Source: Amoebidium appalachense (taxonomy: Eukaryota; Protista; Ichthyosporea). Taken from it: DNA of 64,000 nt. Positions 1 to 64,000 of this stretch are shown here, piece by piece. Each line of letters opens with the position of its first letter. The stretch's first letter is position 1. The stretch is taken from the NCBI GenBank assembly GCA_963693365.1, contig CAVNZM010000002.1, forward strand, positions 1,488,001 through 1,552,000, written 5' to 3'. The translations under genes and the position numbers were made by a program. The notes below the pieces were generated by a model. The model made no database searches. It worked only from the letters and a program-made list of their open reading frames with translations, and was not told where the DNA came from.

Positions 1-2918
1 TTAACGTTGTAGGTCGATAGCATAACTTAGTGTTACTCCTCGATAGCATAACGTAGTGGTACACATGGATAGCTCGTATGTATCAAGGCAGGATTTGTAG
101 ATGAGTAGCAGATGAATGCTGGGATTGTACACCGAAAAGAACGGTGAGGCAGAAGAGGGAAGAAGGAGAAACTTGGAGGAAGACAGGAGGGAAGAGAGCA
201 GGGTTGGTGTGTGTGTGTGTGTGTGTGTGTGGTGGTGGTGGTGGTGGGTTGGGGGGGGGGGGGGGGGGGGGGGGGGGAGAAGCGCAACACCTTCTTATCC
301 AACCGTTCCTTACACGGTCGACCCTAAGAGCCTCCCACCCGTAATCGTGGATAGCATCCTGCCATGCAAGCGGTTAGTTCATCTGTGAGCACTAGCTTTG
401 ATGTGTACATGAAGGAATACGACGGGAAGAGCTAGGATGGGTACGGTCAGGAATTTAGGACATTTGTAAAAGTCTATTTCAGGGAGGTGGTTTTGGGGCG
501 CCTACAGGGAGTTGGGGTGGAGGGGTGGGGGGGAAGGGGGAGGGGGGGAAGAGGAGGGGAGGGGGGAGGGAAGGGGGAGGGGGAGGGGGGGGGGGGGGGG
601 TTTGAGTGGAGGCGTGTCAGCACCAATTCAGAATTCTAAACTATAGAGGAACATATCTCAGATCCCTCCACCCCCTTCCCGTGCTCAATCAGGCACTACC
701 ACAGCCAGTCCTTTTCACACCTTTTCGTAACTGCCATCGTCACTCCCTTTGACCTCCCCCCCCCCTCCCCCCCCCCCCCCCCCCCCCCCTCCCCCCCTCC
801 CCCCCCCCCCCCTCCCCCTCCCCCCCCCCCCCGGTCCTCCCCCCTTTCACCCGCCTCCCCCCTCCCCCGGTCCACCGACCTTTGACCCCGTGCCCCCCCC
901 CCCCCCATCTACCGCCCCACACCAGCTTACCTTGTGGTGTACGAAAGCCTCCGGGTGGGCATCCCACCGGCCCACAAATCTGATGTCTTCAATGCCCACC
1001 TCAGAGATTAGACCTGATTCCTTGAGTGTGATTGGTGCATCGCCACACAGTGGAATGTCGATCTGGATGGGCTCGCCTGGGGCAAGACACCAAACACAGT
1101 CAGCAACCAAGACAAGGTCACAACAGAAGGGATGAACGGCCTAAAATTTGTCTTGGGTTTTAAAAAAGAACACGAATACAAGAATGGGGAAGAATCAATG
1201 AATGGTGTTATTGCTTATATGGCACTAACCTCCCGGTTCCTGCTTTATAAGAAGAGACACCAGAAAACAGAGTGAAGATTAGGGGGGTGGGGGTTGGAGG
1301 GGGACGGGGGGGGAGAAGATGGGGGATGGGTGCGGTTGCGGGAGGGGGGGGGGGGGGGGGGGGGGGGTTGAATGCGGAACACAGTACGAAGGACGCATAC
1401 ACGACGAGAAGCATGGTGCAGGACACATGCAAAGGCAAACATTCAAGTATGCAACATCAGCCATGTGCACAGTATGCGTGGGGGGGATAACTAGGATTAG
1501 AATGTGTTACAGAGTATGACCGACAACTCAATGGAAATTGCAAGGTACACACATAGTCTGCGCCATAAGCAGAGGAAAGACGGGGGGGGGGGGGGGGGGG
1601 GGGGGGGGGACAAGGGACATACCGAAGACAACACGATTCCCCTCTATAGCCACGACCCTATGATGCTCGGTGACTAGGAACCCGTTTTCATGCAACCGCT
1701 TGTAGCGATTGGACAGCGGCATGGGGTCGTAGTGACTCTTAGCCAATGAGGTGCTCTGGTGGTGGATGTACACCTCTTGGCCTATGCTCATTTTTTTGCT
1801 GCTGTCTACCTCCACACTGTAGTCACCTTTAAAGGTACAAAAAGTTACTTTCGTGGTTAAAACAGGGACGTTAAAGGTGGTATAATGCAGAAAGGTTACT
1901 GATCATATTTGGACACCCATCTTGTCCATACCTTGTCCAATTCCCCAGTTGTCTTTCCTCTCTCTCAGCTCCCTGCCCCCTCCTCTAACCCCCCCCCTCC
2001 CCCCCCCCCCCTCCTCTCTCTCTCACTTCTCCTCCCCGCCTTGCCACTCCCTTATTCCGACACAAGAAGGGTGCAAACAAAATAAAGAAATAAACACAGC
2101 GTGAGTCCAAAGGAAAAACATTATTTGCCAAAGCCAATTGGCCAACGAGACGGATTAGTTTTCTATGTCTGTGCCAGTGAATCTCAGATCCATATGTAGA
2201 CATGGTACCTTCGAACATTGCAAGTAAAACAATGTTCAAGTCGGTGGGGTGAGGGTGGTGTGACAATTGGTCAATGTGGGAGCAAGGAAAAGCCTCACTC
2301 TGGAGTGTTGGGTTGGCGGATATCGCCGATATGTATTATCATGACCACCTTTCTTGTTAAAGAAGAGATATCCAATATAACGTCATTTATTTATTCCAGT
2401 TGATCGCTAGATCATGTTGCAATTTGTTAGAGGTCCAGTGGTGATGGTAAAGTGCCCCCTGAAGAGAGGGGGGGGGGGGGGGGGGGAAGAGGGAGGGAGA
2501 GGGGGGTGGGGAGGGGGGAGGGGGGGGGGGGGGGGGGGGGGGGGGAATATATACCATGAGCCACTGCCTTTGTGACTTTGGCAAGACTCTTGCCTCGAGG
2601 AATGCTTGGAGTCACTGTAACCTGGTGCACACTGGGGCATGTGTGTGTGTGTGTGTAGGGGGAGAAGGGGATGTGAGTGTGGGTGTTTGCTATGTACTGT
2701 GTGCACGTGCATGTAGACAGGTTTGAACCCAATTAATCAGTGCCATAATACCTCCACACAAAGCTTAACGGTATTTGAGTTTTCAGGTCCCCATTTAGAC
2801 CTTTATCTATTCCACAACTACCCACCATCCGCACCCCTACACGACAGATCACCAACTTATTTGCAATATTCTCACATCAACACACGTGTATGCCATCTCA
2901 ACCACCAGTCAACACATG

Positions 2919-2974
<56 letters not shown>

Positions 2975-3485
2975 AAAAAAAAAAAAAAAAAACGGGGGCA
3001 AAAAAACAAAACAAAAAAAAACCTCCCTGCTGCCCTTCTTTCAACCTCTCCCATCCTCCCAACCTTGAAGCCCAGCCACTGCCACACACCAACAAACAAC
3101 CACCAACGCTACCCTTCCAGCTTTCACTTTTTTTTTTGCTCACTCACTTCCACACACTGGCGTACATCGGCCCAAACAAAGCGAAATCAGTCGGTACCCA
3201 CCCGTTTACAGGCTTCATGCTCTCAATCAATATCACAGACTCCCCGGGGGGTTCTGCCCCTGCCCCTCTGAGTACAATGTTTGACGTGCGGATAAAAAGG
3301 AGGTGGTCTGGGTTGCTGTCTGGACTCATATGGTACACACCGGGTGGGAAGTAAACAACACCACCACCTGGAGAAATGATGGGGGGAAGCAAGAAAGAGT
3401 AGAAGAGGGATGCCGAGCCGGGGCCAGGGGGGGGGGGGGAGGGGGGGGAGGGGCAAGTGAGTGAGTGAGTGAGTTTTGTGTGTGA

Positions 3486-3528
<43 letters not shown>

Positions 3529-4135
3529 CGTGTGTGTGTGCTTGCCGTTTGGGCTTGAAGCCGAGGGGGGGGGGAGGGGAGGGGAGAGGATTGGGGGCCG
3601 GGGGATGAGGAGGGGGGAGGGGGGAGGGGGGGAGGGGGGCGGGATGGGCCAGTGAGATGAGAAATATTGGGTATTTCCAATAGAAGGCATATGTGGCACT
3701 GTTTGTTGTGTAATGAGTAATGAGATTTGAACCGTAATCAAGGAAAGGAGTCTGACAGTTGTGACCATAATTTCGAAATGGTTGATAGGTTGCCCACGCG
3801 AGGTTGAGGCGGGGAATTTATTGTTGAATACTACTGTGTTCGGGTGCCCCTGGGGTCCCACGGGGGAAGGGGGGGGGGGGGGGGGGGGGGGAAGGAGGGA
3901 GGGCGTGTGGGGGGTGAGGGGGAGGGGGGAGGGGGAGGGAGGGGGGCTCGGTGGGGTATGGATAGAAACAGATACGTAGGTTGCCTATGCTTGGAACTAC
4001 TTTTGGGTGAGTAGCTTGCCTATGAGCCCGTTTTTCGTAACAGCAACAAAAAAAAGGTCTCACAGAAATCACAGTCGGGAGTTCCCCTCCCCCCCCACCC
4101 CGCCCCTTTCCGAGAAGGTGTGTGTGTGTTTGGGG

Positions 4136-4172
<37 letters not shown>

Positions 4173-5300
4173 GTTGCCAGAAGCGGGAGGGGGAGGGGGG
4201 AGAAAGAGAAATGATCATTTTTATTTTTAGGCTATTTATTTTTTATTTGGGGGGGAAGGGGGTTGTGTGTGTGTGTGGGGGGGGGGGGGGGGGGGGAGGG
4301 GGGGGGGAGGGGAGGGGGGGGGGGGGGATTGGTAAGGTGGCTACCTGCGGCCTCTGCCGCCGCGATTGCTTTCTGGATGGTCTCATCGCAATACTGTGCC
4401 CCACATATCAGCAGAGAAACATTTGGAACAGCAGGGCTATTTATCAAACCCCCACTCACACATCTCCCATTTCCGGCCCAAAACAGCCACCCTCCAACCC
4501 ACAAATACCTTACCCCCCCCCCCCCCCCCCCCCCCTTCCCCCCCCCCCCCCCCCCCTTTCCTCCGCCCCTCCCTACCCCCTCCCCCAGCAAAACCACCAG
4601 CACCACCACCACCGATCACCAGCAGGTGCAACACACACAACACACACGCGCCGGTGTGCCAACTCAACAGTCAACCACCCCCAGTCCACATTTCCCTCCC
4701 CTCATCCCGCCCATATTAATCTTCAACCCGCATCCCTCCCCCAAATCCCCTATTGAAAGTTCCTTTTCATCCCCCACCTCTTTCCGTATCGTTGCCACCC
4801 TTCTCCTACTCATTAAATAGTTAAAGCAATATCTCCCTTGAGCCCGATCCACCCATCCCCCCAATCATATTGCCACACCATCCCTTCTCTTCGGTCATAA
4901 TCCCCCTCTCAAACCTTCTTGCCACCACCTGCGCTACCGTCTCTGATCTCGTCAACGGCACATCTATCCCCCTCCCCCCCTTCCCCCCCTCCCCAACTCA
5001 AGTATCCTTGCCTGTTCCTCTCCTCCTAGTTTTCGTGCGGTCCACACACACCTGTCCTGTCTGAGCACCATAATCCAGCACATTGGAAATGGGCCCTACT
5101 ATGTGCGGTATGGGTGCCTCGCTGTATCTGTAGCCGGCATGGGAGAAGTCGGGTAGCACCGCCCTCCTGCCCGTCTGCTGGGCTTCAACATAATCTAGCC
5201 ATAGCTGTGATGAGCTGGCACTGGTGTGTGTGTTTGCGTGTGCGTGTGTGCGTGTGTGTGTGTGTGTGTGTGCATGTGTGTCTGTGTGTGTGTTTGTGTG

Positions 5301-8062: not shown

Positions 8063-9010
8063 CTAGTCATATGACAAAGCTCTAATCTGTCCGTTTCCTG
8101 TGTCAAAGTAGTACACAGAATCTTCTTTCGGGTGTATCACCACCATGTTCACAGTCCCAGCAATCCCTGTGTGCTTTGCCGGAACCTTGCCCCTGGAGTC
8201 ATAGTCTGACCGAGCCACAATCTCCAAAAACACGGCACATACAGCTGAGAACACTACGGCCAGAATCATCATGATAAAGGAATAATCCAAGTCAAAGGTC
8301 TCAAAACCAGTGCTTTCCAAATCATCGTTACCTTTACGAAGAACTTCGGCATAAAACAATACCAAGCCAACCATACCAGTTATGGAGCCGAGAAGACTGA
8401 TCCCACCCAGACCCCGTGAAATATTGCTCGTGCGAAAACGGAGCCACGTAACGGTGGCAAAGGTCATGGGGGGAAGAGATACACAGCACAGGCTCAGCAG
8501 AAACAGAGTTCTGGAAGTATCCAGCCCGCTGCACTTACCGACATTTGGGAGAGAGAAAGAATTACAACTGCTGTCATCGCCCTCATCACAAATAATCCCA
8601 CTGCAGCTGCCGCTGATCGTTCCGCATCCTGCCTTTGTGAAGTTTCCGATTGCGGCTGCACAGAAGCGCCACAGACCCATGTTCGTTATGCCCGTGTATC
8701 GGTCTGTTGAATTCACAATCCCCGAGAGGATGACCATCTCCGGGAGGCCCTTTTGTGTCGACCAATAACTGGTTCCAATGGCTAGGCACGAGAAGATCGT
8801 TGCGCTAATACCAAAAAACAGAATGCACGAAAAGTATGCAAGTTTTTTCGGGTCGGAAAGGAGGAGTCTCCACCTCTGTAGGCAGTTGTCCTCATCTGCG
8901 TCTGTGCTCTCTGTGGTGATAACGTGGTCTTCTATGGGCCTGTCGAAACCCAACGCCCCTTGTTCCTTTCTGTACATTGCAATGGCCAACTGCGCCTGCT
9001 GTTGCTCCAT
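8063..9010 (-). CDS. Claudin/PMP22/EMP-superfamily four-transmembrane protein, single exon
   Basis: Non-repetitive ORF 8063-9178, with the likely ATG at 9010 (MEQQQ). Four hydrophobic segments. First extracellular loop has the W-x(n)-GLW-x2-C...C signature (SYW...NMGLWRFCAAAIGNFTKAGC), and DYSF precedes TM4. Confidence 0.8.
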   Translation of the reverse strand: MEQQQAQLAIAMYRKEQGALGFDRPIEDHVITTESTDADEDNCLQRWRLLLSDPKKLAYFSCILFFGISATIFSCLAIGTSYWSTQKGLPEMVILSGIVNSTDRYTGITNMGLWRFCAAAIGNFTKAGCGTISGSCSGIICDEGDDSSCNSFSLPNVGKCSGLDTSRTLFLLSLCCVSLPPMTFATVTWLRFRTSNISRGLGGISLLGSITGMVGLVLFYAEVLRKGNDDLESTGFETFDLDYSFIMMILAVVFSAVCAVFLEIVARSDYDSRGKVPAKHTGIAGTVNMVVIHPKEDSVYYFDTGNGQIRALSYD

Positions 9011-10135
9011 GGTGCATCGAAGAAAAGCCTGTTCAGGGCGAACTCGAGTTGGGAGTTTTGGGTTTAAGTTTCTGGCTTTTGCGCTCGCCCAACACCCAAC
9101 TCCAAAAAAATAAGTGTGAAGTGGTGCTGCTTCAACAACAGAGGTGTACTCTCGATTTTGTATATGCTCAGAAACCATATTACGTGGCTGCTTTTATGCT
9201 ACTTTATAATGGCTTAGTTCTGACTGTTTAAAAAGCAACACAGCTGCAGGAGGCACAACTACGGCCCCAAAGTCGTGCCTTTTAAAAAAGGAAAAAAAAG
9301 AAAAACACCATCACGTGTGATTTTAACCCGTTGTTCTGCTTGAACTAGCCCCGTGAATTTTTGCCTCATAATATATGGACAATATAGTGTTCATAACAAG
9401 ACTATAAAGTAAAAATGGTGGTGGTTGGTTTTTTTTCTTCATCTCCCGACTCTCTCTGTTACCTCGGCGCCGAAGGCAAGCAGTGGAATGCGACTTGTGG
9501 GTTTGCGACATCCGCTACCGTCTGCATTTATTCATGATTTTAATTAATAGAGAGATGCCTAATGCAGTTCCTCTAAACATTATAACTGGTTACTTATTCT
9601 GTTAAACTTAGTTCATTAAATTTTGTATCAAGGAACAGGCTCACAGAAGTTTTGACCTGCTCGGTCCGACCACAGCCATCCACCAATCATATCGCTGAAC
9701 CATTACTCGCTCCAACTTGAGCCTCCCACGGCCCTCCAACTTGATGGCATCAAGTCACCAACTCCTGTTTGAACACCTCAGCTTCGGAAAGAACACTTGA
9801 ACGTGGTTTGTTTATCCCGATTGTTGAGTATATACGTGCAATAAAGAGAAGCAAACTTCTCCCCAATTTTTTAAAAAAGATATATATATATTGAAGCTTA
9901 ACCCCCAAAGCTGGTACTAAGGGACTCGAAAATCCGGTTGTCCTCAAGCACTTCACAGATGGCATGTGCTTGTTTGTCAGAAATCTATCGAGGGCCGAAA
10001 TCCATACGAACAGCTACAGTACCTAGCTACAATGCAAATGGCCAGACTCCAAACGAGCCACATTCATGCATGCCATATATTTGCCGCTCGCTTCAATAAA
10101 GATGACAGTTACCAGCCGCAAGACATGTCTCCAAC

Positions 10136-13849: not shown

Positions 13850-14698
13850 GGGGAGGGGGGGGGGAGGAGACGAGGAGGGGGAGGGGGGAGCGGGCGGGGG
13901 GGGGGGGGGGGGAGGAGGGGGAGCATCTTCCGGAGGCAAACCTTCTTTGAGCGCAGGGTGTCGCATGGTCTTCCATCCACGGCCACTATCTGGTCCCCAT
14001 ACTCGATGCCTGCATGCTGCGCTATGGACCCCTCTACCACCAACGCCACAAACACACCGTAGCCCTTGATCTGAATGAGGAAAGGAGAGTGGTAGTAGGT
14101 TAGTGTTGTTACTGAGGGAGAGAAAAAAGAAAAGAAACAGGGTAGCTTTGGCTTATTACTGGTTGGAGGGGGAGGGGGGGGGGGGGAGGAGAGGGAAGGA
14201 GAGGGGGGGGGGGGGACGGGGGGAAGGGGGTGCGAGAGGGGGGGGGGGGGGGGGGGTGGATGGAGGGTAGGTTATAGGGTTCAACTGTACTGGGGCTTTA
14301 AATTGTAAAAACAAAAACAAACACGAGGCTAGGTTAGGCTGTCACCGATAGCTATGTGGTTGTGTCTACTTGTATGAGGGGTAATCAACGTCAGGTGTAG
14401 TCGGTAATAAGAGGTGTGTGGGTGGGTGGGTGGGGGGCCGGGGGGCAGGGGGGAGGGGGAGGGGGGGGGTTTGGACAGAATATAGAGGGCCAAGATCTAG
14501 AGTGTGTGAAAAACATCCGGTGAGCTAGGGGAGAGGAGAGGGGAAGGGGTAAGGGACCCGGGGGAGGGAGGGAGGGGGGGGGGGGAGAGAGAGAGGGGGG
14601 CAGAGTGTGCTGGTGTGTGTGTGAGTGTGCTGTGCACGTGTGCTTGTGTGTGTGTGTGTTTGAGTTGGTGGGGTGGGGTTGGTTGGGGTGGGTGCCGG

Positions 14699-20580: not shown

Positions 20581-34443
<13,863 letters not shown>

Positions 34444-35995: not shown

Positions 35996-48421
<12,426 letters not shown>

Positions 48422-50976: not shown

Positions 50977-52696
50977 TCAACCAACTAACGCTTTTGTTAA
51001 AAGAGGAGCCGCGGGGTCTTCATCGCCCCAACCAAGTCCAAACGCACCGTCGGGGTAGGTAGGAGGAGGCAACATATTTGTAGCCAAAGCCCCGCTGGTA
51101 GAGGGACACTTTGCCCACAGGGCAGCAATCGACACAGACGGAAATTGATTTCTGATGTTGCCATAGTACCTGGGGCCTGGGTCTTGGAATGCACAGTTTT
51201 CGATTACAAATGGCCGCCCTAGGTGCTTGTAACTGAAACCCATGAAACTTGACGGTGGCTGGCTCACAGTGGCATCGTTTTTGAATACCCCTCGCGCCGT
51301 GCTTGCCTCAATTCCTAGCTCGATGTATTTTCGGTGGAAGTTTGAATCACCAACCTTTGCACTTCCAAACGAAAATACACCTGCAACATTATATTTTACG
51401 CCTAGTTTAGCGCCGTTTTAGAAGAAGCTACCCAATAGGCGGCTATGAGGGATGCAAAACAGCCTCCCCTGCTGTGACCGGTGATAATAACGGCACACTT
51501 GTCAAGAGTCTGGCCCAAAGTAGAGCACATATCCACCATTGCCTGTTCAAAGCCATTTTGCATCAAACCCACAGCTCCTTGTTGGAAACCTGTGTGCACG
51601 TGCGCCTCTGCAGGAAATCCGAGGGGAGGGGACAGATTCTTGTGCGGCGTTGAAATTTGAGCGCCAGTCTGAGTTAAAAGGGTTTTTACCCTTACTCCCC
51701 TGAAGAATCACTATCACCGCACTATCCGTACGAAGAACTACTACCTCGTTCTGGTTCGCTGTGGCCACCGTTTTGACTTCACGCGCACCCAAACACGACC
51801 ACCACTTGGCCATTTGCGAGCTGGGAAGATCGACATATGTGCTCCCTGATAGAAGCATGGCCATGTACATGTTGACTACAGATAGTCTCTCAGGATAGAT
51901 CGGGATTATGTACTAGCCAATAGGAAGACAGTTATGGTTCACACCTGGCGTATGCGGCCCCAGGCGGTCCCCAAGTACGCGTGGGCGGGATAGTCGGCTA
52001 CCTGCGCGGATGCCAGTCCGCGAACACATCGTCCAATAGGAATACAGATAGTCTCTCAGGAATGATAGATCGGGATTATGTACTAGCCAATAGGAAGACA
52101 GTTATGGTTCCTGGCGTATGCGGCCCCAGGCGGTCCCTGGCCAAGTACACATAGGCGGGAACAGGCTAAGTACGTGACTGGGAAGAGCAGGACTAAACAG
52201 ATAGACTATTCTATCATAACAGTTGCTGCTGACACCCAATGTGTTGGGTTGAATGCAGCTTGGTTGTTGAGGACATTACGGTAGGCGTAGTTCTTGCAGG
52301 CGGGCATGGGGACATAGTTGTATGGTGGGGTGAAAGGGAAATTTGGTACCGGGGACAGAGAGGTGCGGGGAACCAGAGGATAGTACGAGTCTACCCAGTT
52401 TTGGGCCACTTGAGTCCTGCACGGACAACGCCCGTCACACACTTTAGTGACACCCGGCTTACAGGTGAGGCTTGGGGTTTTCGTAGGTAACCCCGTCCGT
52501 TCCGCACACTGGGTGCCCACCCCCACTTCCTACCGCGCACAACGCACACCCTGAACCCCATTTAGTCCCCTGGTTGAAAAGGCTGGAGAATAGCCCGCGC
52601 CGCTCTAATGGATGGGCATTGGCCCATGGCCATGAACTACTGGCAGAGAGGAAGAGCAAAAGGGCCAAGAAGGTAGGTGGAGGTTATCTTGGACAT
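50977..52696 (-). pseudogene. Frameshifted secreted Kazal-domain + class 3 lipase gene, no obvious introns
   Basis: Signal peptide (MSKITSTYL/LALLLFLSASS), then Kazal C..C...PVCGTDGVTYEN/..TC.PGV..VCDGRC, then lipase motifs VIVILQGS..DW..N, VHTGF, IITGHSRGG (GxSxG), SFGS.KVGD, KND.V...P...YKH.G. Frame breaks near 52670, 52472, 51600 and 51415, a stop at ~52206, and an internal duplication. Confidence 0.85.
51877..52160. repeat. ~115-bp direct duplication inside the lipase pseudogene
   Basis: 51877-51990 versus 52043-52160 (TACAGATAGTCTCTCAGGA...GGCGGGA), with small indels differing between the copies. Confidence 0.9.
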
Positions 52697-56438: not shown

Positions 56439-56889
56439 TGGGATTGGCTTTGCCACATACAGCAGCCACGTGCACACAGAATCTGTGTTGTATGCACACA
56501 TATATATAAACACTTCTTCATGCCCAGCCGGATATCACCGGTACCTTTTTGCGTTGATAAAACGGGTTCGTCAACACGTGTAACTGATTATGTCGCCATT
56601 CGACTTGGCTCCTTCGAATTCGATTCACGAAAACCTCAAATTTTCCCCGGCGGGGCCGGGGAAGAAGAATTCAAAAATTGCCCGCTCCTGATTTGGTACC
56701 GGGGCCCCAGAACTGCCGCGAACAGCCGCTGGCAGGTGCCTGTCGAAGTCGACATTACAAGTGATGACGTCATTGAATAGTCTAAAAGGATGTCGCAATT
56801 GCAGAGCTCCGCCTCTTTCCAAAATTGGATCAGAAATAGCATAAGCCCAAAACTAATGAGTGAATAGGTATATAAATATTCATAAACCT

Positions 56890-56937
<48 letters not shown>

Positions 56938-57089
56938 TAAATTATTTTATTTTGTTTACCGAAACTATAAAAAGTCCTCTGGTTCTATCTCGTCAGCGCA
57001 AAGACGGTGATCCGTTCAGATGGCAGTTCAACGGCCATCATCCTGTCGACACAACCGTGGTCAACACACCGTAGACTATTCTTGCGCAC

Positions 57090-57240
57090 GGTTGATTGGC
57101 CCATCGAGCATCACGCACAGCCCAATTTGATTGGCTGCTTAAGCGCGCCGTCAATTCAAAATTTCAAAACGGTTGACCCAACGACTTTGCATGCATGGCG
57201 TTGGAATGCAACGGCCGAAATCCGGCGCATATAAAAAGCG
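57090..57240 (+). promoter_or_regulatory. Candidate cell-cycle promoter: CCAAT boxes, CHR-like, MYB-like and TATA elements
   Basis: ATTGG 57095 and 57130, CCAAT 57122, GCGCGCC ~57143, TTCAAA (reverse-orientation CHR TTTGAA) 57155 and 57163, AACGG 57168 and 57210, TATAAAAAG 57230, about 210 bp upstream of the ATG at 57448. Confidence 0.6.
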
Positions 57241-57447
57241 CCCCACCGCTCAGTTCGCCCTCGAGCTCAGAAAGTGCTTCGGTCGGTGTCGCCTCTTATA
57301 GCTGCGTCGCTTTTATTCTTCCTTTCAAACTGTAAAACTGAACAGCAGCTGCATTTGTTTTTCGTTATGAGTATTAGAGACCGCTGAAGCACATACAGCT
57401 CGTTTGTAAACTCAACAAAGCACCATAGTTCCTCGCTCCAGGCAAAC

Positions 57448-58873
57448 ATGGATCACCGTAGCAAAACATCTGCTCCCACAAGCCCAAACAGGGGTGGCCT
57501 GTCTGTGCGTATGCAGTTGGACTCACCGGAGAGACGGTACAAGGCACAGCCCTACAGCCCACCCAAGCTGAGGAGCGTCAACTTGTTTGGACAGGTGGGC
57601 ACCTTTTACTCATCTTCATCTTCAACCATGTTCTCACTCATCTGCTTGTTTGTGATTCTTGCTCTGAGCTCTTTCTTTCGTTTATGCCCTATTTAAAAAT
57701 ATAGAACGAAGCCAATGTTTATCATTCTGCTGCCTCTTTCTTCAGAAGTACTGAAAATAACTGCACCTTTTGTGCCGCTATGAACACCTCCTTACAAGCG
57801 GCCACCACACAGGACACACCCGTTACGTGTGACCGGCCAAGCTCAGAAAACTGCCCCACCTCTCCCACTACACCTATCAGCACCATAAGGCTACAGCTGG
57901 CCTCACGTCTTTACCTCGACACCCCAGAATCACTGCCTCCCTTTCACTCATCGTTCACACTTGATACCCACTCAAACAAGAGCCATACCACAACACCACT
58001 CGGGGAGTCAAACAGACGCCAGCCTCGTTCCCCCTCTCCTACCCTCCACACCCATATAAGCACACCAAAGAAACTCTCGCCCAAGAAGATTTACAGTTCC
58101 CCCGAGAAAACGAGGAATATTCTCGAGAGTGTCCCGGAAGAGATTGCCATGCTCATCTTGCAGAAGCTCAGCCAACGGGACCTGTGCATGTGAGTTTCCC
58201 TCCTTGTGTATGAAAACGGAAAATACGAAGTCTAGAAGGTTAATAGTGAGCCGTGCACTTGTGCTTGATAAGTGGGTCGTAAAGGGGTGATAAAAGGAAG
58301 TTATGGCCCGGTGGATGGTTAGTTGATGCATGCTTGAAGTGAAGGAAAATGGGTGGAGGGAGGAAAAGGGGAGGGAGACTATTAAAACGAAATGGCGAAA
58401 AAACTAGCTAAAAGGAGAAAGCCTTCTCGGTTAACCATGCGATGGTGTCCTTGTTATTAACACACCCACCCAAACACGTTACATTTGCCACATCTCTTCT
58501 AGCCTGTTATGCACCAAATCCATCAGCCACCCACCACTACTTACCCACAATCTAACCGCCCACTCCCCTTTCTCTCCCTCCCCCTTCCTTCTCACTCAGG
58601 GTTTCAGCCGTGTGCCGAAGCTGGCGCCACCTTGCTGACCGTAATGTTCTCTGGGAGCCACTCTGCCGTCTTGAGCTGTCCCTCCAGATCACCCCCGGGT
58701 CGTGGCGTCGTGTCTACTGCGATCTGCGCAACTATCAGCGCCAACCCCACGACACGGCAACGAGAAAGCGCCGCCGTTCCATGGATGTGCTGGTCAAGTT
58801 TGGCCTCTATGACTCGGTAGGCAGCCCTTCCCTCTCTCTCCCCCCCCCCCCCCCCCCTCCCCCCAAACGTGCG

Positions 58874-58904
<31 letters not shown>

Positions 58905-59981
58905 AAAAGAGAATGAAAGCAAGAACAATGCAAATGATTGAAGCAATTTTTGAGAGACTAGCCGTGTGGGGGGGGGGGGGGGGGGGGGTGGGGGGGGACA
59001 GGGGGGAAGGGGGAGGGGCATGCCAGGAGGTGGATGCGAGGGAGGGAAGGGAGGCCATGCCAGATACGAACATGACCAATTCCATCGTTACATATCTAAC
59101 ATTCTTCTTTCCCAACAGCCCATCTCACAAGGCCGTCTGGGATCTGTGAGCGAAACGACCCAGACCCCCCCTACCACCCCCCCTTGCCTGCCCGCACTTG
59201 TGGAGGCCGAGAAGGAAAACTGGGGCCCAATGAAAAATGGACAGGACAGACCACGCCGACCACGACTGGCTGTCGGCATGCGGCCTAGGTCACCTCCCGC
59301 AGCTGGTATGTTCCGAAGTACTGCTTGCATGGCGTGTGCTTGTTTCGTCTGTATTGGTGCATTGAGTAAGGGTAGACTGTACCTAAATGTCTGGGTTTGC
59401 CTCATGTAAAATAGTGATTAGGGAACGTGTGCAGGATGGTGAGTTGTTTGATGCAAACCCTAAAAAGTTGGAGTTGGTGCGGAAATTGCCTTATTTGGTA
59501 CAGAAATTAGTTGGGCATTAGATCAAAACCCTAGTGGAACCAAAAACAAACACAAAACAAAAAACTAACAAACTATCTCCTTTCCGCAGGCTTCCTCCGT
59601 TCCTGCCCCCAATGCCACACCCTCAATGCCACCCAATCAGAAACCACCAACGAGGCCAGCTGTAACCACTGTGGCCATACGTTTTGCACCGACTGCCTTC
59701 GCCCAATGGCCGTGCATCCCACCGGCACTGCATGCAGTGTTTTGGCTGACGGTAGATCACTGGGCGAAGTCACAAATACCATTGCGTTGGTTATTCCCGC
59801 ACCCTCTGATGATGAACCAATGAGAATGAACGGTTCAGTTATATGTAACACAACGAAAGTAGCCAATAGGTTTGCACCTGTGGTCGGTCATGCGAAAAAG
59901 AGCGAAAATGTGCGGAAGGGTTCGAAGGATGTAGAGATTGCTGGAGGCAAGACTAGCAAGCAGAGACTTGGCAGGCTGTAA
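57448..59981 (+). CDS. Emi1/Emi2/Rca1 (FBXO5/FBXO43)-like F-box protein with ZBR zinc finger and C-terminal RL tail; putative APC/C inhibitor
   Basis: Exons 57448-57594, ~57813-58189, 58600-58816, 59119-59305 and 59590-59981 join in frame. F-box: LESVPEEIAMLILQKLSQRDLCMVSAVCRSWRHLA...LW. ZBR: CPQC-x15-CNHCGHTFCTDCL-x5-H-x5-C. Terminus: IAGGKTSKQRLGRL*. Confidence 0.85.
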
Positions 59982-60381
59982 GAACTGATTGCATGAATGA
60001 AGATAACCATATATGGAAATGAATGAAAGTTACGGCAAAGTATCTTTATGTGATGAATGTTCTCTTTCCATGTCAGTTTGTGTGAAGATTCGTGTGTCCG
60101 TGTTAAAGCGCAAGACTGATGACTGGAACGGTCGGTGTAAATAAGTAATAAATTCACATTTACACGTGTGATATAATGATAGTGGAGTAGACTAGATTTA
60201 AATACGGGGATTAAGCCCTAGTTGAATGTTGAAGTTCAAGTACTAATATTGATAACGGGAGTAACACATGTAGTAGGCTAGATAGTGTATATACAAGTAA
60301 ATAAATGTCAGATGTTATACAACACTCTGATGGTTGGAAAACAAAAGAAAGTGATTCGAAACAGACAGTGAAAATGGTTCT

Positions 60382-60423
<42 letters not shown>

Positions 60424-61440
60424 CCTCCCCCCCCCTCCTTCCTTCCTTTAGTGTTTGGTTGCCTGCATGCCTGCCCCATCCCGACGATACACACGCAAGC
60501 ACATATATCACACGCATACGGACCCCACACACTGACACAAAAACAAAAACACACATCCTTGTACACCCAACCTCCTTCACACTCTACCTCGCTCACATCC
60601 AGCTCCCACATGTGCACAAGTTCAGGTACACGTACACAAACATGTCCATGGGTCACACACACGGACACACATGCACCGTTGCACCCTCATACACACATGT
60701 AATCACGAAGTCGACTATCAGGGCCTGGGTGTTGGCATTACAATGATCCATCCACCTCCCGGCAATATTGATCATGAGTGTGCACATGTACATGCACCAC
60801 GCTCCTATTTTGCACACAACACATTCGGATACGTATGGGGTTTACACACTTTTTATTGCGATACGTATGCATTTGCAATCAAAATAACTATCAATTGGGG
60901 TGTTGAGGATCCCAATTTAATACAGAGCCACGTCTATATGTACAGATATCCCTTTATCAAGCATACCACAGAGAAATAGACATCTACAACCAAAGAATGC
61001 ACTTCGTGATGGGGCTTGCGGACTGGCGTAAAGACGATGCAACTAAATACACGGGAGCAGGAAAAGAAAGGAGGCAAACGGGGCCCGTGCATATGCGTGG
61101 CTATCCAGAAATGATGGATTTAGATGGTGTTGGAGGAGAAAGAGAAATGTGGGGGGGGGGGGGGGGGGGGAGGGAGGGAAAGAGGGGAGATCTCGATTGG
61201 GGGGGGGGGGGGGGGGGGGGGGAGAGGAAAGAGGGGAGATCTCGAGGGGTTGGAGGGGGGGGGGGGAGGGAGTTTCATACTGCCTAATAGGGTAAATGCT
61301 GTCTCTATGGGTATACACTGTACATGCCTATCAGGGTGAACACTACCTACAAGGATACATGCACACAAATATGAGGCCAAATTAATGGGTACCTAAATAC
61401 ATTATGAGGCCAGGCCCCCCCTATGCCTTATAAGGCTAAT

Positions 61441-62864
61441 CTAATGCTCTAGGGGGTTCATGCCCAGCAGTGCAGCCACGTGGTCGGCTATGGCCAGGCA
61501 TGACGTCAGACCCGGTGACTCGATGCCCAGCAGGTTGACCAGTCGCGCCCGGGTCACCGACGGGCCTTGGATCTGGCCCGGCTCGATTCGGTAAGTATTC
61601 CACTGCACTCTCCAATCCCTCCCCCCCCCCTCTCCTCGCCCCTCCCCTCCCCCGCCTCCCGCCACCACCACCACCAAATATACAAACGCACACAGACACG
61701 TCACCACCACGGTTCTTCCACCCTCTTTCAGGCATCATAGTCACTCTATCCACACACATGACAGGCACAGTTATTTTGCAAGGAGTGGGCATTGACAGGC
61801 TTCTCCGGTGCAGCACATCCCTCTCTCTCTCCTTTCCCCTCTATCTCTCCCTCTCTCTTCTTCTATTCTTTTTTCCGCTTTTGCCTCTCTCTCTCTCTTC
61901 TTTTTTGGGTGGGGAGAAGGAAGGGGGGGGGCGGGGGTTATACTGATATCATCAGCTGTTCAAATGCAATTATTTGTCCGGAGGAACCAGCGATTTCCTT
62001 GTTTGACTAGCTCGGGCCAGATAGTGACAGAGGTTGTGTAGGGGTGAGTGTTTGGTGGTGGTGGTGGGGGGGGGGGGGGGGGGGGGGGGAGGGGGGGGGG
62101 GGGGAATAACCAGAAAGTCTGCTGCAGGCTCTTTCGGGCCAACAATCTTTGGCCTAATGCCCGAATATGATGGCTGCAGTGCACCATCAGGTAGGCCAGG
62201 CCAATACCTGTGTGTGTGTGTGTGTGTGTGTGTGCATGTGCATGTTCTTCCAGACATTCCATTGGTACGTTGCATCAGTCACCAAAACTTGAGGACACAC
62301 CCAGGAGCTAAAGAAGCCATTACCTGTGCAGGAGTTTTCGGCGCCTATCCCCCCCCCCCCTCCCCCCCCCCCCCCCCTCTCCCCCCTTCCTTCTCCCCCC
62401 CCCCCCTCCCCCCACTCGCACACACACAGGCACAAGGGTTGTTATGGGTGGCTCTCGGTCTATCTATTGCCAAGACTTCTTGGTAAACGGGTACGGGAAG
62501 AATGGAGGGTAATCAAGGAGCTACACCAGATGGGAAAGAGATATCCGGCCGTGAGAGACCGGGCGGGGAGAAGGGGGGGTGGGGGGGGGGGGGGGGGGGT
62601 AAGAATGTGTTTTAGAGTAGGAATTACACATTCACAGCGGACAACACAATGCAGAGTGCAAACCACACATAAAGACCATGCATCACAAGCAGAGCCCATT
62701 CTCAAGGGGGGACAACGCCATCCACTGTACTCGAGTTTCGAGCCATTCACCTCGTTGACGAAACCCAACTCAATAGGGGGGAGGGGGGAGGATATACAAG
62801 CGTGAGTGTAGGTGGTGGTGGTGGTGGTGGTGGTATGGGGGCGCAGGGGGAGGAGATGGCAGGC

Positions 62865-62895
<31 letters not shown>

Positions 62896-63026
62896 TAGAC
62901 ACCACAGCATGGCAACTATGGGAGCAAAGGCCATGAAAAAAATTGCAAGGATAACAAAAGAAAAAAGAAAAAAAAAAGAAAAAAAAAGCGAAACGAGGGT
63001 TGATGGTTGTTTTTTTTTTTTTTTTT

Positions 63027-63067
<41 letters not shown>

Positions 63068-63262
63068 TATACCTCCTTATGGCCGTCTCAAATTCTCCCA
63101 ACCGCCTGTCACTGACGTTATAACTGATGGAGTCTATCCATTCGGTGTCGGGGCCAAATTTCGCTGCAGAAATGAGCGCCCACCAGATTAGATTTCGGAC
63201 GTATCGCATTCTTCTGGATCTTCTAGATTTTTCGTACAAGAATCCAACCAGCAAGAGCAATT

Positions 63263-63314
<52 letters not shown>

Positions 63315-64000
63315 CGTGTGCGTGTGTGTGTGCCCTTTTTGTGGCCTCTATGGGCACTCATAACCATGTGCGTGTGTGTGTGTAGCCCCACCTTTAACGA
63401 TCTTTTCACCCTCCCTTGCCCCCTCATCTCCTCCGCTCCCGCCCCCCTCCCCTTTCCCCACGCCCGGCCCCTCCTCTCATGTGTCTGTTTGTCGGTACGT
63501 GTTTCTGTGAATTTGTAGGTATGTTCTTGTGTGTGCATGTAGGCATTTACTCACCCATGTGCCGGTCTGTGTTTGTGTCTATAGGTATGGTTTTGTTGGT
63601 GTATGTAGGTATGTGCTTGTGTGTATATGTAGGTAAGTGTTTGCAAATGTAGGTACCTGTGTGCATGTATACAGGCATGTCTGTCTGTGTGTGTGCATGC
63701 ATCTGTTTTTGCGTGTACATGCAGGTATGCCTGCGTTTATGCAGGCACACATTTGTGTGTGTGCAGGTACATGTACGTGTGGCACGCCTGTGTGCACGTA
63801 TGCAGGTATGTGTTCTGTGTGCATGCAGATGTGCACCGTGTGCATGTACACATGTGTGACAAACCTTGGCCAGCCAGATCCAAGGTCACGTGCACCCCCA
63901 GGCCGGCATTATTAGGTACCGGGTAGACCAGGTGATTGAAGGGGTGGTGGCCACTGATGCTGAAGTAGCTCCCCTGAAAAAGATGAAAACATAAATTTCT
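61441..64000 (-). CDS. L2HGDH: L-2-hydroxyglutarate dehydrogenase (FAD-dependent, LhgO family), 3' part
   Basis: Exons ~63865-63973 ([36 protein letters not shown]), ~63073-63164 ([11 protein letters not shown]...AIRR), ~62111-62207 ([20 protein letters not shown]...ADF), 61441-61572 (IQGP...[19 protein letters not shown]...*). Confidence 0.93.
62635..62772 (-). mobile_element. Dispersed SINE-like repeat, diverged partial copy in an L2HGDH intron
   Basis: Reverse complement reads GAGTTGGGTTTCGTCAACGAG...CGAAACTCGAGTACAGTGGATG...TGAGAATGGGCTCTGCTT, matching 20088-20175. Confidence 0.7.

Follow-up and report, generated by a model that had tools for sequence, protein, structure and literature searches.

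Emi/Erp proteins share a layout in which an F-box is followed by an RxxL motif, a C6HC zinc finger (the zinc-binding region, ZBR) and a 14-residue C-terminal RL tail (PMC4141206, PMC5717348, PMC6534075). [quoted passage not shown] The tail competes there with UBE2S, which ends in the same LRRL motif (PMC5717348). The human protein is described as both an APC/C substrate and an APC/C inhibitor (PMC11579458), and Emi1 is under negative control by Cdk1 and is degraded via a β-TrCP degron (PMC6534075). In these accounts Emi1 is termed a metazoan APC/C inhibitor and is set against the inhibitors of yeast (PMC6534075, PMC5717348). Here we describe a gene in a stretch of 64,000 nucleotides (contig CAVNZM010000002.1, positions 1,488,001 to 1,552,000, forward strand; hereafter the window) that probably encodes a divergent ortholog of Emi1/Emi2/Rca1, acting as an inhibitor of APC/C-Cdh1 in what is likely an ichthyosporean host.

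The gene is real, being spliced as well as transcribed, and the parts of its product and their order are established. It encodes a protein of 439 residues in five exons on the plus strand (57448-59981; Table 1), with the start ATG at 57448 and the stop codon at 59979-59981, exactly where a preliminary description of this DNA had placed them. A single 1,824-nucleotide contig of sequencing run X1 aligns to 57274-57590, 57809-58189, 58600-58815, 59118-59304 and 59589-60311. Three of its four joints appear in the joint table as GT..AG skips, and run X2 shares one of these; the table, in which repeats were skipped, lacks the third joint, yet within the contig it is contiguous (699-914, then 915-1101). 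Three runs, all of one sample and one study, cover 57300-60200; they are not on record as RNA, and are taken to hold transcripts because spliced joints are present. Only one of 64 combinations of exon boundaries gave GT-AG at all four introns together with an open frame, and this combination defines the coding blocks in Table 1. The frame would also stay open with another acceptor, at 57704, which none of the contigs uses. Since the X1 contig covers all five exons, finger and tail included, the final exon is part of the transcript; the preliminary description had regarded its absence from complementary DNA as a result that would speak against an Emi-type protein. Separately, the 5′ untranslated region holds an upstream open reading frame of six codons (57367-57387, plus strand), which could restrict translation of the Emi1-like gene.

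The elements that had been read from the genomic letters are all found in the spliced protein, namely six full cyclin-dependent kinase (CDK) sites, the F-box, the KEN box, RPRL, the C6HC ligands and the tail IAGGKTSKQRLGRL. The CDK sites (residues 12, 26, 37, 133, 138 and 145) lie within residues 1-152, and their number was matched by a fraction of only 0.0001 of 20,000 shuffles, while the 13 minimal sites of the same region were matched by 0.0007. The F-box is split by intron 2, its halves matching adjoining parts of the F-box-like family PF12937 (positions 2-22 and 24-46 of 47; expectation values (E) of 0.017 and 0.00016), each under the curated cut-off. It stands upstream of the inhibitory region, as the Emi/Erp family requires. 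Human FBXO5 may likewise carry a phase-2 intron at the corresponding F-box codon, which, if so, would speak for common descent.

The KEN box (residue 279) follows the F-box and precedes RPRL (residue 294, between F-box and finger) by 15 residues. A bare KEN occurs in 759 of 20,000 shuffles and a wider form fitting EKENWGP in six, this form having been picked after the sequence was seen. The preliminary description had held a KEN box to be unusual for the family; human EMI1 has one (118-120), far upstream of its D-box (322-330), so only the place after the F-box differs (PMC11579458). RPRL is weak by itself, being one of eight RxxL matches in the protein, and it comes without the extended D-box consensus. 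Beyond the finger lies GRSLGEVTN, noted earlier as D-box-like. The motif is present, and its LGEVTN agrees with the extended consensus at positions 4-9 only (PMC5717348), a match that 564 of 20,000 shuffles also give; it is not an RxxL motif, however, the Arg being one place too near the Leu.

The finger qualifies as a C6HC zinc-binding region of IBR topology and is predicted to bind zinc. Its eight ligands (C315, C318, C334, C337, C342, C345, H352 and C358) follow the order C-C-C-C-C-C-H-C with a spacing of 2-15-2-4-2-6-5, and the last exon matches IBR_1 (PF22191) at 28 bits, with a cut-off of 27. The same eight ligands occur in the same order in mouse Emi2 (FBXO43/XErp1; C573-C614), where the spacing is 2-14-4-4-2-4-4 (PMC4141206). 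A C6HC finger and Pfam matches to IBR_1 and IBR are also shared with the IBR/RING2 domains of RBR ligases (HOIP, RNF216, Parkin, ARIH). Unlike these ligases, the present protein has one finger, no RING1, and an F-box and RL tail instead. The spliced 439-residue protein has only three CxxC motifs, all within this finger, which leaves neither a RING1 nor a RING2; it is therefore not an RBR ligase.

The C-terminal tail, covered by the RNA-derived contig, ends in LGRL at the stop codon, three of the four letters of the published LRRL. Eight of 12 positions fit a provisional consensus of vertebrate Emi1/Emi2 (I426, A427, G428, S432, K433, L436, R438 and L439) and the other four differ, a fit with a chance of 2e-6 to 6e-6 by composition; the corresponding chance for LxRL at the stop alone is 3e-4 to 7e-4. 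In the family, the tail is defined as the 14 C-terminal residues ending in RL, and similar to mouse Emi2, the tail found here opens with a hydrophobic residue at position -14 (I426; L628 in mouse Emi2) and closes with RL (PMC4141206).

The 300 nucleotides upstream of the 5′ end of the contig were taken as the promoter region. Its motifs are singly modest, with CCAAT matched by 0.056, TTTGAA by 0.04, AACGG by 0.006 and TATAAA by 0.024 of 5000 shuffles. The combination of CCAAT, AACGG and the TTTGAA motif resembling the cell cycle gene homology region (CHR) was reached by none of 5000 dinucleotide shuffles and by two of 1274 overlapping 300-nucleotide tiles of the window, both over the promoter of the Emi1-like gene. 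A mixture of CCAAT, CHR and Myb-type motifs is a mark of cell-cycle genes in animal and plant work, and Myb-like sites together with CHR-like sites are typical of G2/M genes. As the motifs were chosen after the sequence was read, and most tiles are not promoters, we use them as supporting evidence only. An E2F-like site is not enriched in the promoter, since 0.67 of shuffles reach it. At ~56640-56720, CHR-like and E2F-like sites form another small cluster, noticed by eye, in which a divergent gene may have its promoter. The ratio of observed to expected CpG is 0.50 for the window as a whole, rises to 0.67 in coding exons and reaches 1.26 in the promoter (56974-57273), a pattern that would be expected for a methylated genome with an unmethylated promoter.

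The host is likely ichthyosporean and not an animal, judging by the two tandem PLAT-PIP5K genes of the window. Of 36 candidates searched with a 65-residue exon of the first gene, 12 proteins matched, and the five highest-ranking came from Creolimax (77% identity), Amoebidium (78, 76 and 75%) and Sphaeroforma (76%); when all matched pieces are counted, the identity of the first copy to these proteins is 56-67%. The PLAT + PIP5K layout of the window recurs in four of the five and is common to Creolimax and Amoebidium proteins. In a tree of 13 rows that included 11 of the 12 matches (the 121-residue P0014 was left out), both window copies belong to an eight-row group with all six named ichthyosporean rows (97/96) and adjoin an Amoebidium protein (94/98). 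They also group with each other (99/96), suggesting a lineage-specific duplication. This grouping agrees with the non-animal host surmised in the preliminary description. The host is probably an ichthyosporean other than the three whose proteomes are named here. The marker proposed there, L2HGDH, was of less use: the best exon of the neighbouring oxidoreductase had PDB entry 3dme as its sole PDB match (E 1.4e-12) and did not place the host, and PIP5K proved the useful marker.

The yeast inhibitors Acm1 and Mes1 are not known to carry an F-box, a zinc finger or an RL tail. As is predicted for the protein described here, they use KEN and D-box-type degrons to occupy the coactivator and are under control by CDK (PMC5717348, PMC6534075). 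With vertebrate Emi1 (FBXO5) and Drosophila Rca1, the latter compared from descriptions rather than from its sequence, the protein shares an F-box, a D-box-type motif, a C6HC ZBR and an RL tail in that order, as well as a KEN box and CDK sites (PMC5717348, PMC6534075, PMC11579458). It differs from Emi1 in having a putative D-box that is minimal only, a second D-box-like motif after the finger, the ending LGRL and a non-animal host. Vertebrate Emi1 proper also has an N-terminal β-TrCP phosphodegron (PMC6534075); because none was found here and common descent is putative, we do not file the protein as Emi1 proper.

In analogy with human EMI1, the protein is predicted to hold off APC/C-Cdh1 during S and G2. 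We infer this mode of action because each of the four EMI1 sites has a counterpart here. KEN279, together with one of the two motifs that resemble a D-box, would fill the substrate sites of the coactivator, the finger would sit on the APC11 RING and block the chain-starting ubiquitin-conjugating enzyme, and the terminal LGRL would take the APC2/APC4 groove used by the UBE2S tail, so that chain elongation would stop. The F-box would bind Skp1, and the CCAAT/CHR/Myb-type promoter would make expression periodic. Since the protein has the CDK cluster but no DSG-type degron was detected in it, its off-switch may differ from that of Emi1; phosphorylation of the N-terminal sites by CDK may lift the brake or tag the protein for mitotic destruction, through a pathway that does not use the standard β-TrCP degron. 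The unicellular holozoan Capsaspora has UBE2S (PMC7098662) as well as Apc2, Apc4, Apc10, Apc11, Cdc20 and Cdh1 (PMC3195147). We lean slightly towards the view that the ichthyosporean form is a rearranged brake, in which the finger is flanked on either side by KEN and D-box-like motifs and control is by CDK only, and that it may set the timing of the coenocyte's synchronous nuclear cycles.

A number of results weigh against orthology with the Emi family. In a word search of longer proteins with the last exon, none of 133 candidates was a relative, and when 1.84 billion representatives were scanned in full with HMMER, the one match was P0001, a repetitive unrelated protein. The scanned collection includes proteins of Amoebidium, Creolimax and Sphaeroforma, yet no relative of the last exon was among them, nor was one found in viral contigs. 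A degenerate tail pattern had six matches in metagenomes and six in prokaryote genomes, none of the 12 with a CxxC in frame; the pattern is insensitive, because it admits leucine solely as CTN and just two of the stop codons. The most tail-like match, L002 (563-1826, plus strand), was rejected as a chance match, being an off-frame reading within a phage lysis region whose frames we take to be endolysin-like and holin-like. Against the PDB, phmmer (E <= 10) detected no Emi1 or Emi2 chain with the last exon (25 matches), the finger (39) or the tail (0). Queries were single exons and the full scan reports E <= 0.001 against 1.84 billion proteins; at this threshold a diverged ortholog could be missed, as the conserved part amounts to ~60 residues split by a long spacer. 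Neither the word search, the full scan nor the tail-pattern search returned a usable sequence of a family member.

The structural comparisons, and the protein itself, add to these points. The single-sequence model of the finger is weak, with a predicted local distance difference test (pLDDT) score of 60.7 (a model of the whole last exon, at 45.1, was discarded). When this low-confidence model was aligned by VIA-align with 48,161 chains, with no family name supplied, 15 rows reached Z >= 2; EMI1 (2m6n) ranked first (Z 3.1, root-mean-square deviation 3.0, 39 residues aligned), followed by RNF216 (Z 2.7), Emi2 (2rt9; Z 2.5, deviation 3.8, 42 aligned) and Parkin (Z 2.5), so that the EMI1 finger is tied, within the method error of 1 Z, with the IBR domains of RNF216 and Parkin. 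Foldseek gave 39 rows at E <= 10, none significant, in which RBR ligases stood above EMI1 (9gaw_S, rank 14) and Emi2 was at rank 17 (2rt9). Both Atlas searches led to IBR/RBR or unnamed clusters with a low recognition score, none named FBXO5/43. In the tail, Gly replaces the basic residue at position -3, and the consensus used to score it is provisional. The region that follows the finger is 81 residues long, versus 27 in mouse Emi2. A full or strict extended D-box is found nowhere in the 439 residues, and a loose pattern detected no β-TrCP degron of the DSG type in the protein.

Four other explanations have to be set beside a divergent Emi ortholog, which the evidence as a whole still favours: the architecture, the expression and the non-animal host of the preliminary description have held, and the EMI1 ZBR came first in the structure search, if weakly. 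It is unlikely that the protein is a lineage-specific substrate adaptor of the Skp1-cullin-F-box type, with an IBR finger gained from an RBR ligase and an RL ending that plays no part at the APC/C. Such an origin would agree with the placing of the finger among IBR/RBR domains by Pfam, Atlas and Foldseek, with an F-box half that resembles Fbw7 weakly and not Emi1 (PDB sequence search, three matches, E ~0.5) and with the absence of relatives from the word search and the full scan. However, the published ZBR itself has IBR topology (PMC4141206), so the IBR matches are expected under both readings and cannot tell an Emi protein from an RBR ligase, and the tail match, the KEN box, the CDK cluster, the promoter motifs and the Emi-like order of parts would go unexplained. 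The same low probability is given to an inhibitor that works in the Emi1 manner but does not descend from a holozoan ancestor, being either assembled independently, with a tail copied from UBE2S, whose ending is the same as that of EMI1 (PMC5717348), or taken long ago from an animal host, many ichthyosporeans living in animals (PMC11286789). While phmmer detected no similarity to Emi1/Emi2 and the full scan surfaced no ortholog in other unicellular holozoans, independent assembly would require F-box, finger and tail to join twice in the same order. A recent transfer should have left a clear similarity to animal proteins, of which the full scan shows none, and the poly-G/C and CA repeats of the introns are those found elsewhere in the window.

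A true ortholog might, with a probability that is slightly lower again, be mainly a substrate or weak pseudosubstrate of the APC/C, or act on APC/C-Cdc20 in the manner of Emi2 at a special stage such as cellularisation or cyst arrest, rather than as a brake in S and G2. The imperfect D-boxes, the Gly at -3 of the tail and the long spacer fit this role, as do promoter sites of G2/M type without enrichment of the E2F-like site and the double nature of human EMI1 mentioned above; all four inhibitory elements of EMI1 nevertheless have a counterpart here, and the transcript is present in the one sample examined. Finally, the contig could be animal DNA or a chimera, and the gene an ordinary animal ortholog. 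The assignment of the host rests on one gene family, of which one exon was searched among 36 candidates, and the PIP5K tree was built without animal rows and with the window rows projected on the Amoebidium protein they group with, which biases their finer placement. We consider this explanation very improbable, since both PIP5K copies are closest to ichthyosporean proteins, the Emi1-like gene and the neighbouring oxidoreductase are spliced in the same run and the sequence scan detected no animal Emi1.

If the gene is an ortholog of Emi1/Emi2/Rca1, the origin of Emi1 would move back to the base of Holozoa and the brake would be older than animals. The protein would then be an outgroup for sorting ancestral elements (finger, tail, KEN) from animal additions (the β-TrCP degron), and a concrete candidate for control of the nuclear cycle in coenocytes; two ichthyosporean species can be transfected (PMC11286789). 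‘Animal’ genes of premetazoan age are a well-known phenomenon, animal work has already supplied the mechanism, and proteins of this kind may already be flagged by automatic annotation in databases. Among the literature matches listed, we found no report of a non-animal member of the Emi family, though supplements beyond those searched, bioRxiv supplements and subscription papers could hold one. The names FBXO5, FBXO43 and EMI1 are absent from the supplements of PMC11153136 (10 files), PMC7098662 (12 of 17 files) and PMC6040629 (12 of 16 files).

Table 1. Features of the Emi1-like gene and of its neighbours, in positions of the window.
Feature	Position	Strand	Remarks
Two tandem PLAT-PIP5K genes	20755-31983 and 37384-45461	+	
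Proximal promoter	56974-57273	+	3 CCAAT, 2 CHR-like TTTGAA (minus strand), 4 Myb-like AACGG, TATAAA at 57230
5′ untranslated region	57274-57447	+	5′ limit is where the RNA-derived contig begins rather than a mapped start site
Exon 1, coding part	57448-57594	+	Residues 1-49; three full CDK sites; from contig and frame
Exon 2	57813-58189	+	Residues 50-175; region rich in S/T-P, three full CDK sites, first half of F-box from 58122
Exon 3	58600-58816	+	Residues 175-247; second half of F-box to 58666, F-box extension
Exon 4	59119-59305	+	Residues 248-310; KEN box 59212-59220, minimal RxxL (RPRL) 59257-59268
Exon 5	59590-59981	+	C6HC zinc finger of IBR/ZBR type, residues 315-358, at 59604-59735
Non-canonical D-box-like GRSLGEVTN	59751-59777	+	Residues 364-372
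RL tail and stop codon	59937-59981	+	14 residues, IAGGKTSKQRLGRL
3′ untranslated region	59982-60311	+	Under contigs; AATAAA at 60147 and 60300
Convergent oxidoreductase dependent on flavin adenine dinucleotide, last four exons	61258-63975	-	Spliced in the same run as the Emi1-like gene

The window as a whole is eukaryotic in character, with short exons amid poly-G/C and CA repeats. The convergent oxidoreductase is presumably L2HGDH-like, with motifs that we take to be of proteobacterial, plant and fungal type rather than of animal type. Two long frames at 50977-51912 (minus strand) look to us like a class 3 lipase, a label for which Pfam gave no supporting match. An intronless frame of 376 codons (8063-9193, minus strand) had a weak match to Claudin_2 (E 2.7e-05); tried as a host marker, it found none of 1,156 candidates to be related. 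On the minus strand at ~1600-5250 lie exons of a gene resembling pectate lyases (PF12708, E 0.0024); this type is mostly bacterial, and the gene was possibly acquired horizontally. A PDZ-domain exon is found at 13924-14112, also on the minus strand.

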